Virus record (IMG/VR): IMGVR_UViG_3300048672_000251
Span: 1-54,769 of that record
Origin: a virus
Lineage: Duplodnaviria > Caudoviricetes
DNA length: 54,769 bases
Direction: 5' to 3' (one strand)
Part shown: positions 29,511 to 31,273 of the stretch, piece after piece
Layout: each line of letters begins with the position of its first letter
Position numbering within the stretch: position 1 is the stretch's first letter
Translations under genes and position numbers: made by a program
The notes under the pieces: model-generated
Seen by the model: only the letters and a program-made list of their open reading frames with translations
Database searches by the model: none
Told to the model about the DNA's origin: nothing

Positions 29511-29910
29511 TCCCTAAAACGGCAAACAGTAAATCAAGTGGTATTGCTATTTCCTGCCGCCATTTATGCCACTGATAAAATCTGTGGATATCAATAACCT
29601 GATCGAACAGCATCAGGCCGTTACATATCAAACTACTGGCAATTATAGCCGCATAAAGTCCATAAAAGTTGTGATATTTTACTGATAAATAAATACAGAG
29701 TATTAAAAACGTGAGGTCGATGGCAGATTGCTTGATGTACACCATGTACACGTTGATAGATTGATTGGTATCCAACGGTGCTGACCGCAGATAAACAGAC
29801 GCCAAAAACACTGCGTAGTAGCCGAGAATTAACAGACAGAGGTTTACGCCCCTGCCCGTTTTCAGCCACAACGCGGCCAGAATTAGCAGCGCTAACTCAT
29901 TTGTCATCAT
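29425..29910 (-). CDS. Polytopic membrane protein (4-5 TM)
   Basis: Several hydrophobic segments; AT-rich codon usage. Confidence 0.7.
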   Translation of the reverse strand: MMTNELALLILAALWLKTGRGVNLCLLILGYYAVFLASVYLRSAPLDTNQSINVYMVYIKQSAIDLTFLILCIYLSVKYHNFYGLYAAIIASSLICNGLMLFDQVIDIHRFYQWHKWRQEIAIPLDLLFAVLGSGGVRISNYNNPYLRTSTGKRYNRHHCN

Positions 29911-29974
29911 CTGGCTTCGGCGGCTGGCTATCAGGCTGAACTGGTGGCTTTACCGGGGTTTCTTGTTCTGGCAT
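29897..29974 (-). CDS. 25-aa Pro-rich peptide MPEQETPVKPPVQPDSQPPKPDDDK
   Basis: AAGGA RBS; upstream TTGATG-16-TAATCT promoter with TG extension; overlaps the start of the membrane gene. Confidence 0.55.
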   Translation of the reverse strand: MPEQETPVKPPVQPDSQPPKPDDDK

Positions 29975-30229
29975 TGGTACGGTCCTTAGGTTAGTTATCA
30001 GCTCAGATAGATTACCAGAGTAACCGACAGCATCAAACTTATTTTTACGCCGGCTGGCTCGCGTTCGGCATCTGTCACGACATCTCACATGATTGGCGCT
30101 GGTAATAGGCCCGGACAACAGCGTAGAAGCAATGGCGCTCAAGTATTGGATGAAAGAGTACGCCGAACATGGTGATAAGGTGCTGGAAGTCGATACGGCT
30201 GTTCCAATTGCTTTAGGAGCGCCAGGCTG

Positions 30230-30283
30230 ATGGACTACTTACCGCCACAACCAAGTTACCCGCCGCCGGATGACGACGATTAG
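30230..30283 (+). CDS. 17-aa Pro/Asp peptide MDYLPPQPSYPPPDDDD
   Basis: TAGGAG RBS and a terminator immediately downstream. Confidence 0.35.
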   Translation: MDYLPPQPSYPPPDDDD

Positions 30284-30296
30284 TGGCGGTATTCAG

Positions 30297-30325
30297 AGCG
30301 GTCAGTGATGGCCGCTTTTTTATTT
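30297..30325 (+). terminator. Intrinsic terminator (possibly bidirectional)
   Basis: AGCGGTCA-GTGA-TGGCCGCT followed by TTTTTATTT. Confidence 0.75.
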
Positions 30326-30388
30326 GGTCGGTGCGGTAGGCGTGATCTGCGCCCCAAACGCAGCGATCAGCCATTGACCCAGACACCG
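30325..30388 (-). tRNA. tRNA-Pro(TGG)-like element lacking the T arm (64 nt, encoded CCA)
   Basis: Acceptor CGGTGT/GCACCG plus ACCA; D arm GGTC-AATGGCT-GATC; anticodon arm CTGCG-TTTGGGG-CGCAG; only 12 nt where the variable loop and T arm should be, with no TTC. Confidence 0.75.
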
Positions 30389-30395
30389 GAATTGT

Positions 30396-30750
30396 AATGA
30401 GCTGGCCGGTGCTTAACTCCGGCTTCGTCTGTAGGTTTACCCGCAACCAGACTGGACGCTCCAACGCCTTACGGCGCAGCGGCCCTCCCAAGGTGGATAT
30501 GCGACCCAGCGCGTTAGCTCGCGCATTCAGCTCATTGGTTTTGGTGTCTGACCGGACGATCCTGCAAGAGACTGTTTTAATCAACCAAACACCAAACCAA
30601 TAAACTGGGCGGTATCTCTACCGCGGTAAGCCGCCATTACAGCGGGAAGTGCATAACAACCTCCGATTATCTGACCGTCTCTTACTTGGCTGACGGTGTG
30701 GCCGCACTGTGTAAGAAAAGCCCCGTTACTCTGCAATTCGCAGCGGGGCG
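30396..30750 (-). ncRNA. Cluster of structured non-coding RNA elements
   Basis: 9-bp closing stem AATGAGCTG/CAGCTCATT around a multibranch domain; 20-bp stem with four G-U pairs on the minus strand; GNRA-capped hairpins (GAGA, GTAA). Confidence 0.65.
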
Positions 30751-30784
30751 GTCTGCTCTGATGCGTTTTAAATATATTGGTTGA

Positions 30785-31273
30785 CTACTCGCCTGTCAAG
30801 TAATTATTTTCAGCTGCCCACGCTAACGCAGCGGATTTACCTTTCAGCTTCGATGGGTTCACCGGGCCGAGACCTTCCACAACAACGTTGTACCAGCCCA
30901 TACCGAGGTTTTCCAATGTGGCGGGGATGCCGGCGGCTTCAGGTGCTGTTACGGCTTCAGGTGCTACTGCGGCTGGCTCCGTTACCACTGCGGCTGGCTC
31001 CGTTACCACTGCGGCTGGCTCCGTTACCACTGCGGCTGGCTCCGTTACCACTGCGGCTGGCTCCGTTACCACTGCGGCTGGCTCGTCCACATTACCATCG
31101 AGCGTGTGGCGGATTTGGCGCGCATTCCACAGACGCGAAACCATGTGCTGACCAATAGCCATGTGACGCCAGTTAAACTCGTCGCCTGGTTTAAAAATCT
31201 GTGCGCCGTACTGAAATTCCACAATTGCGTACAGCGGCTTTGATAAATCTAAGTCCTCAAATTTGTATGTCAT
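30785..31273 (-). CDS. Hypothetical (likely virion-associated) protein with EPAAVVT repeat linker
   Basis: GGAG RBS; follows the MCP; two globular ends joined by the repeat. Confidence 0.75.
   Translation of the reverse strand: MTYKFEDLDLSKPLYAIVEFQYGAQIFKPGDEFNWRHMAIGQHMVSRLWNARQIRHTLDGNVDEPAAVVTEPAAVVTEPAAVVTEPAAVVTEPAAVVTEPAAVAPEAVTAPEAAGIPATLENLGMGWYNVVVEGLGPVNPSKLKGKSAALAWAAENNYLTGE
30966..31084. repeat. Perfect 21-bp tandem repeat (about 5.7 copies)
   Basis: Unit ACTGCGGCTGGCTCCGTTACC. Confidence 0.96.

Follow-up and report, generated by a model that had tools for sequence, protein, structure and literature searches.

A tRNA-Pro(UGG) gene relic without T arm, probably a young pseudogene, directly behind a covarying structured RNA of a tailed phage

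The DNA studied here, called the window throughout, is the whole stretch of 54,769 nucleotides (nt) of the virus record IMGVR_UViG_3300048672_000251 (Caudoviricetes), which is 95% complete. All coordinates are those of the window. In the structural module on the minus strand, between the major-head-protein region and the genes for the head–tail connector, an untranslated stretch of about 640 nt is found. It carries a predicted promoter, a structured RNA and, directly 3' of this RNA on the same strand, a tRNA-like element of 64 nt, which is read from 30388 to 30325. As judged from its sequence, the element belongs by descent to the tRNA-Pro(UGG) lineage, which is a statement about homology and not about function. 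It is probably a plain young pseudogene of an ordinary phage-type tRNA-Pro(UGG) gene. Its parts are as follows, with the evidence for each in brackets.

30325–30388, minus strand: tRNA-Pro(UGG) gene relic, 64 nt including A73 and CCA, without the 5' strand of the T stem and without the T loop (sequence, ARAGORN -mt call, alignment, permutation test)
30382–30388, minus strand: acceptor 5' strand CGGTGTC, whose partner is 30329–30335 (sequence, alignment, pair probabilities 0.86–0.99)
30365–30379, minus strand: D arm GGTC-AATGGCT-GATC with G18 and G19 (alignment to intact phage tRNA-Pro genes)
30347–30363, minus strand: anticodon arm CTGCG-TTTGGGG-CGCAG with U33, G37 and a 7-nt loop (BLAST, alignment)
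30354–30356, minus strand: anticodon TGG (sequence)
30336–30346, minus strand: variable region ATCAC, first T-stem base G and surviving T-stem 3' strand CCTAC (alignment)
30325–30335, minus strand: acceptor 3' strand CGCACCG, discriminator A73 and encoded CCA (BLAST, alignment)

The bases TG stand between the acceptor strand and the D arm, and a single G between the D arm and the anticodon arm. The letters were re-read, and the sequence and the coordinates on the minus strand are those of the original prediction, which was made from the bare sequence. It had described an RNA gene that resembles tRNA-Pro(UGG), has identity elements and CCA and lacks the T arm, and this anatomy is right according to the alignment and the permutation test. 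Six of the seven acceptor pairs are kept, with a T6-G67 wobble and a C7-C66 mismatch, and A73 and CCA are present. The D arm, with G18 and G19, and the anticodon arm, with U33, agree with those of real tRNA-Pro genes. A canonical tRNA has a T arm with a 5-base-pair (bp) stem and the T-loop pattern GTTCRANYC; CCTAC is the sole remnant of it in the relic.

A BLAST search with 86 nt around the element against 50,697 phage records gives weak local matches, and 12 of the 25 matches listed lie on features annotated as tRNA-Pro. For comparison we used five intact phage tRNA-Pro(UGG) genes, including those of Pectobacterium phages Wc4 and CBB, Acinetobacter phage phiAbaA1 and Bacillus phage Bc431v3. 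The D arm with its flanking bases is identical to the tRNA-Pro of phage CBB at 19 of 20 positions, and the anticodon arm with the variable region is identical to that of phage Bc431v3 at all 23. The segment CCTAC-CGCACCG-ACCA with three trailing bases matches the 3' ends of the Wc4 and phiAbaA1 genes exactly (19/19). MAFFT alignments of the five genes misplaced the 5' ends, and a permutation test was used in place of a tRNA-Pro covariance model. The global-alignment score of the element against the five genes is 53.5, which none of 2000 shuffles reaches (mean 10.2, standard deviation 3.3, maximum 24). When both strands of the window are scanned in 13,678 tiles, the top eight tiles all overlap the element. 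A phage attachment site (attP) or a fragment of a host tRNA was considered and rejected: the gene has both of its halves, the tRNAs that it resembles are those of phages, and E. coli has no match.

Pattern searches for relatives of the gene itself returned little. The exact 27-nt anticodon-arm pattern has no match in IMG/VR, the combined anticodon and T-arm pattern has none either, and the pattern of T arm and acceptor matches only a family of 104-kb Acinetobacter phages (2 loci).

The lesion is simple. The relic has a single gap of 11 columns against all five intact genes, and one gap of 11 nt against phiAbaA1. At the deletion site, between 30341 and 30340, four bases of the 5' strand of the T stem and the whole 7-nt T loop were removed, while the first T-stem base (G) and the complete 3' strand CCTAC were left behind, the latter orphaned. 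A second lesion is found at position 7: the intact Wc4 and phiAbaA1 genes, which have the same acceptor 3' strand, carry G7, and the relic has a C there, so that 7:66 is C-C. The original prediction had spoken of a T arm replaced by a short linker. The T arm is indeed gone, but no evolved linker of the mitochondrial kind is seen. With 11 nt missing, half of the T stem left over and pair 7:66 broken, the T arm was cut out rather than remodelled into a replacement loop, and the lesion looks like a recent deletion in an ordinary tRNA gene. An assembly error is not the cause, since 30291–30448, the deletion included, recurs with 0 differences and 0 gaps in a contig of 158 nt that comes from an independent wastewater study (run X3, record 10).

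Programs for tRNA detection give a divided picture. ARAGORN in standard mode finds 0 tRNA genes in the whole window, and the element is still not called at -ps80. In Rfam there is no match at gathering scores, none at E ≤ 10 on 30300–30420, and none for RF00005 across the record of the window. No tmRNA is found by the tmRNA mode of ARAGORN in the region of the window (default, -ps90 and -ps80) or by the Rfam tmRNA models at E ≤ 10; pair 3:70 of the relic is G-C and not the G3-U70 of tmRNA. The metazoan-mitochondrial (ARWEN-type) mode calls exactly 30325–30388 as 'TV-loop mtRNA-Pro(tgg)'. This mode makes 14 calls in the window, most of them within long open reading frames (ORFs), against a mean of 9.2 (range 5–15) in 15 dinucleotide shuffles. 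One call, the element, ends in CCA; the shuffles have 0.2 such calls on average and at least one in 2 of the 15. The folding energy is also ordinary (z = −1.2 to −1.4; 20–22 of 200 shuffles fold equally well). Thus the shape of the relic alone is at chance level, and its sequence is not chance. A comparison of ARAGORN with an ARWEN-type finder had been proposed in the original prediction; the mitochondrial call is there, but the standard mode gives none, and the call itself comes at background rate. A caution follows for phage DNA in general, in which mitochondrial-mode tRNA finders report 'armless tRNAs' at background rate. The relic fails as a canonical tRNA: it has no T arm and no detector score.

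The predicted fold is not a cloverleaf. For the isolated RNA a rod of −25.6 kcal/mol is predicted, and the T-arm-less cloverleaf (−15.9 kcal/mol) lies about 10 kcal/mol above this minimum. The acceptor helix is kept in the predicted fold with the pair probabilities listed above, the D stem has a pair probability of about 0, and the rod buries the D arm and the variable region and ends in 6 acceptor pairs with an ACCA overhang. The longer alternative anticodon helix noted in the original prediction is real in the sense that it is part of this minimum-energy fold. A tRNA without T arm has no elbow and no binding surface for EF-Tu. According to the accessible text of PMC1636415, T-armless tRNAs are not bound by canonical EF-Tu, and in nematode mitochondria a dedicated EF-Tu1 is required for them. 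The phage record has no match to the EF-Tu family (PF00009), which was matched in 14 of 14 control genomes. Since the T arm is absent and canonical EF-Tu cannot bind, decoding is excluded for practical purposes. The relic fails also as a functional T-armless tRNA, with detection at background level and no partner factor.

The RNA upstream of the relic and the other features of the stretch are listed here.

30771–30799, minus strand: sigma-70-type promoter TTGACA-17-TATATT, 11 of 12 consensus positions, predicted to drive the RNA cassette (consensus match)
30535–30764, minus strand: 5' part of the structured RNA (alignment of the window with the IMG/VR phage L003; 83 predicted pairs, 6 of them compensatory)
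30720–30749, minus strand: terminator-like hairpin GCCCCG...CGGGGC followed by TTTTCTT, about 15 nt after the predicted RNA start (sequence)
30637–30665, minus strand: Shine-Dalgarno motif GGAGG, 5-nt spacer and a 5-codon mini-ORF, MHFPL and stop (mini-ORF domain 30637–30654; sequence)
about 30528–30607, minus strand: long hairpin with variable tip (window/L003 alignment)
30398–30534, minus strand: 3' module of the structured RNA, with closing helix P1 and four hairpin domains (three-sequence alignment)
30295–30328, plus strand: intrinsic terminator, stem-loop 30295–30318 followed by a T tract (terminator prediction, sequence)

Helix P1 has 7 bp (30528–30534 with 30398–30404). Homologues of the 3' module are found in L003 and in Klebsiella phage VLCpiS13b, and the model built on these three sequences has 33 pairs with 98% of the cells paired and 8 compensatory pairs. 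None of 500 shuffles reaches these values, and slid controls are paired at 31–43%. The structured RNA as a whole has about 370 nt (window 30398–30799, minus strand) and no match in Rfam 15; a long-range helix is predicted between TGCGGCC (about 30695–30701) and GGTCGCA (about 30500–30506). Promoters are read at the equivalent positions of L003 and VLCpiS13b. A terminator-like hairpin near the RNA start is present in L003 as well, and phage HK620 has one after pR'/qut. The layout of promoter and terminator suggests a lambdoid antitermination leader of the Q type, a candidate that was rejected after PF06530 and PF03589 found no match in the phage. The arrangement of the mini-ORF is kept in L003 (MHFTL and stop). 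RNAalifold instead pairs the stretch into a G-U-rich helix, and it may be a leader peptide or a structure.

The plus-strand T tract is the complement of the A-rich trailer behind the CCA of the relic, which means that the relic has no minus-strand terminator of its own. No such terminator is found between the upstream RNA and the relic either, and the minus-strand hairpin is not followed by a T tract. On the plus strand at 30093–30328 there are two small overlapping ORFs, one of 45 amino acids (aa) from a TTG start (32 aa from ATG) and the other for a 17-aa peptide rich in proline and aspartate. Together with the terminator stem-loop at 30295–30318 they run antisense to the late operon and abut the CCA of the relic.

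The relic begins 9 nt after helix P1. In VLCpiS13b the 3' module is followed, also 9 nt past P1, by intact tRNA-Arg(TCT) and tRNA-Met genes, and the C1 of the relic and the G1 of this tRNA-Arg share one alignment column. The shared column indicates that the relic occupies a true tRNA slot, and the link to 'the upstream RNAs' that the original prediction had drawn is confirmed to this extent; its interpretation is in this way partly supported. In L003 the slot holds an unrelated hairpin-forming sequence between homologous flanks. Contigs of runs X2 and X4 have window-like flanks on one or both sides and the L003-type sequence instead of the relic (breaks at 30320 and 30398). The hairpin of this L003-type sequence is no better than shuffles (z = 0.02; 94 of 200 fold equally well), and the idea that the slot always needs a stable hairpin was rejected on this ground. 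As L003-type slots have no tRNA-like element, a tRNA-shaped handle is no general requirement of this RNA. The closest capsid relative (G001; 87% identity of the major capsid protein) has no such cassette at all, and membrane-protein genes are found there instead. At the cassette position of this relative (L061, 290–1870) we observe three small ORFs for membrane-like proteins and a short peptide rich in Lys, Asp and Pro, similar in style to window 29897–29975. Within the structural module the cassette is an insert that can be swapped, and the content of the slot is, as far as the sequences tell, dispensable and exchangeable. Behind the related modules of Klebsiella phage BUCT610, all that is left of a tRNA-Met is its last third, which runs from the T loop to CCA; by the look of these sequences, tRNAs beside this RNA family evidently decay repeatedly.

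A canonical tRNA is found in 0 of 3 records, namely those of the window, of its capsid relative and of L003. With no gene of the EF-Tu family in addition, the phage is independent of its own tRNAs. Two degenerate patterns run over viral contigs found only L003 as a further carrier of the upstream RNA, two metagenome scans found 0, and neither plasmids nor 5,426 E. coli genomes contained a match. The genome collection holds one 44-kb contig (L004), titled as a Flavobacterium metagenome-assembled genome. Over 8 kb its identity to L003 is 100%, so it does not count as an independent carrier; binning has probably placed phage DNA in that assembly, and the contig is therefore no evidence on the host. 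Given the homology of the RNA to that of a Klebsiella phage, the host is probably an enterobacterium.

The scaffold of the RNA module is more widespread. It consists of a closing helix of 7–9 bp, AAT, a 5-bp hairpin, a variable core and a second 5-bp hairpin that abuts the 3' strand of the closing helix. Read by eye, it recurs in BUCT610 (L067, 1000–1345), Erwinia phage Gungnir39 (L068, 900–1050), HK620 (L072, 1200–1305) and phage P1 (L071, 1320–1640). In HK620 it lies in the late leader between pR'/qut and tQ, and in phage P1 in the ban operon near tRNA-Asn, tRNA-Thr and tRNA-Ile. The carriers are otherwise unrelated phages, and the scaffold usually stands in operons that also hold tRNAs; its outline appears cloverleaf-like by eye only. 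A 38-nt piece is 97–100% identical across many carriers. Two very well-studied phages, P1 and HK620, are thus among those with the scaffold of the RNA upstream of the relic.

A tmRNA-like messenger segment with the tag frame ANEEVYLAVA or ANEEMYLAVA before a stop codon is found in VLCpiS13b (L001, 2651–2843), BUCT610 (L067, 731–838) and HK620 (L072, about 990–1035). It lies in the 5' part of the Klebsiella-phage and HK620 versions of the RNA, a part that the RNA of the window lacks. About 190 nt around the tag frame match 805 phage records, including Felixounavirus, Vi1-like, T1-like, N4-like and SSU5 phages. On the Klebsiella-phage and Erwinia-phage loci Rfam gives only sub-threshold tmRNA matches (tmRNA_permuted at 26–27 bits against a gathering score of 47), and ARAGORN with default settings finds no tRNA-like domain at the tag-frame segment. 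Between the RNA module and the tRNA-Met of Gungnir39 (L068, 1058–1184) there is a sequence with acceptor-like ends, a T arm and ACCA and about 60 extra nt inside; ARAGORN with introns allowed makes no call there. Among the papers listed by the literature searches none describes a phage tmRNA-like element, the module scaffold or a T-armless phage tRNA, which is no proof of absence.

We favour the following course of events. An intact ancestral tRNA-Pro(UGG) gene would have stood directly behind the conserved phage structured RNA and would have been co-transcribed with it, like the tRNAs of the related cassettes. A deletion of 11 nt would have removed the T loop and the 5' strand of the T stem, and acceptor pair 7:66 would have been lost through a change of G7 to C. 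The relic RNA would still be made as a 3' trailer of the upstream RNA; such transcription as a tail is suggested because both share a strand, the upstream promoter is strong and no minus-strand terminator intervenes. Without a T arm this RNA would form no tRNA elbow and would not be carried by the canonical EF-Tu of the host, and hence would not decode. Alone it would fold up as a rod-like hairpin whose acceptor end has 6 bp and an overhanging ACCA. Whatever activity is left would be at most incidental: RNase P might cut at C1, or the upstream RNA might be protected at its 3' end.

Several points speak against a mere decaying gene. The spacing of exactly 9 nt to the upstream RNA is preserved, and phage genomes usually purge useless DNA. 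The deletion-bearing sequence is a stable feature of circulating phage. Except for the deletion and C7 the gene looks pristine, and U8, A14, G18, G19, U33, G37, A73 and CCA are all kept; the deletion may be very recent, or else constraint still acts on the remainder, and the data fit both. The pattern searches described above found no intact ortholog or close relative with a full tRNA-Pro by which to date the deletion.

These points can be read in favour of a relic that selection keeps as a processing or stability handle. In that case an RNase P cut at C1 would set the 3' end of the upstream RNA, and the rod or the uncut hairpin would shield it from 3' exonucleases. The position of the relic in the column of a true tRNA, 9 nt past P1 as in VLCpiS13b, would suit such a role, as would the confidently predicted acceptor helix with intact A73 and CCA, the absence of a minus-strand terminator between RNA and relic, and the undamaged rest of the gene, identical in an independent sample. 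Bacterial RNase P, however, reads the stacked helix of acceptor and T stem together with the T loop, and the relic offers 6 bp followed by an internal loop. Moreover, L003-type cassettes do without a tRNA-like element in the slot, and their hairpin is at shuffle level. We consider a selected handle, which corresponds to the processing tag of the original prediction, unlikely on balance and keep it as a minority reading. A bolder version may be drawn by analogy from RNase P cleavage at the tRNA-like mascRNA behind MALAT1: the relic could be an exapted bacterial counterpart, in which a cut at C1 matures the 3' end of a hitherto undescribed phage structured RNA and a rod-like, CCA-ended 64-mer persists and engages factors that bind tRNA-Pro. 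This idea has only a slim chance of being right. If the relic were processed, it would show, as a simple experiment of nature, how much of a tRNA is required by bacterial RNase P in vivo.

A functional tRNA mimic is improbable. The original prediction had raised this possibility, in which the RNA would titrate prolyl-tRNA synthetase (ProRS) or lure away an anticodon nuclease of the host or some other defence that targets tRNAs. The identity elements of tRNA-Pro are G72, A73, G35 and G36, and the anticodon stem-loop, A73 and CCA are intact in the relic. Phage tRNAs do counter tRNA-targeting defences (PMC10264068 and PMC11555353, accessible text), but the counter-defence tRNAs described are complete, working tRNAs. 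No tRNA-Pro-specific defence is among the papers listed by the literature search. The element is limited to one lineage; relatives whose flanks are nearly the same have something else in its place, and the unrelated hairpin occupies the slot in three further versions of the cassette. The predicted rod would hide the D arm and the variable region, and the copies show no sequence variation for a test of selection. No positive evidence for the decoy was found. A decoder tRNA of the nematode-mitochondrial type is close to refuted. It would explain the TV-loop call, and it would have codons to read, CCA being 29% of the proline codons in 59 long phage ORFs. The call is, however, at background, half a T stem is left over, pair 7:66 is broken, the cloverleaf is far from the predicted minimum, and the phage has no EF-Tu-family gene, where T-armless tRNAs need the dedicated EF-Tu1 (PMC1636415, accessible text). 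We give hardly any credence to the view that there is no real feature at all, but a chance look-alike, a terminator hairpin, an assembly artefact or part of the ORF at 30213–30584 (minus strand, 123 aa), which spans the region without a stop. Shape and energy at chance level would agree with it. Chance and artefact are refuted by the permutation test and the independent 158-nt contig, and a terminator would call for the T tract that is absent behind the hairpin. No Pfam or PHROG family was matched by the ORFs that cross the element, and the ORF would have to run across the RNA with its 8 compensatory pairs.

With the young pseudogene as the preferred reading, the element by itself is ordinary, a decaying phage tRNA gene. 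It is of value as a signpost to the 'tRNA slot' of a promoter-driven and covarying RNA not contained in Rfam 15. The greater interest lies in this neighbouring RNA family.

A comparison with known systems places the relic as follows. Its surviving parts match intact phage tRNA-Pro(UGG) genes piecewise at 95–100%, and an encoded CCA is present in 3 of the 5 intact genes; the relic differs in the 11 missing nt and in C7 for G7, and no one gene is close overall. The truncated tRNA-Met of BUCT610 is likewise a tRNA remnant directly behind the same kind of RNA module, but there only the 3' third is kept, whereas the relic keeps all but the T-stem 5' strand and the T loop. Other tRNA-like 3' elements or non-tRNA substrates of RNase P are MALAT1-mascRNA, the precursor of the C4 antisense RNA of phages P1 and P7, and the stable RNAs in the tRNA cluster of phage T4. 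They share with the relic a tRNA-shaped or CCA-ended helix behind a stable RNA, and a cut at the 5' end of this helix would make the 3' end of that RNA. Unlike the relic, they are conserved and have the stack of acceptor and T arm; for the relic, which has no such stack, cleavage is only hypothetical. The tRNA-like domain of tmRNA is also a partial tRNA with acceptor stem and CCA, joined to a larger structured RNA, and relatives of the cassette carry a tmRNA-like tag frame. In contrast, tmRNA keeps the T arm and has no anticodon arm, which is the opposite of the relic, and the relic has no G3-U70. The T-armless tRNAs of nematode mitochondria resemble the relic in having acceptor, D arm and anticodon arm without T arm, and the same ARAGORN/ARWEN mode detects them. 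According to the accessible text of PMC1636415, however, they form a set that has co-evolved with EF-Tu1, whereas here a single gene is found with an apparently fresh deletion, an orphan half of the T stem and no partner factor.

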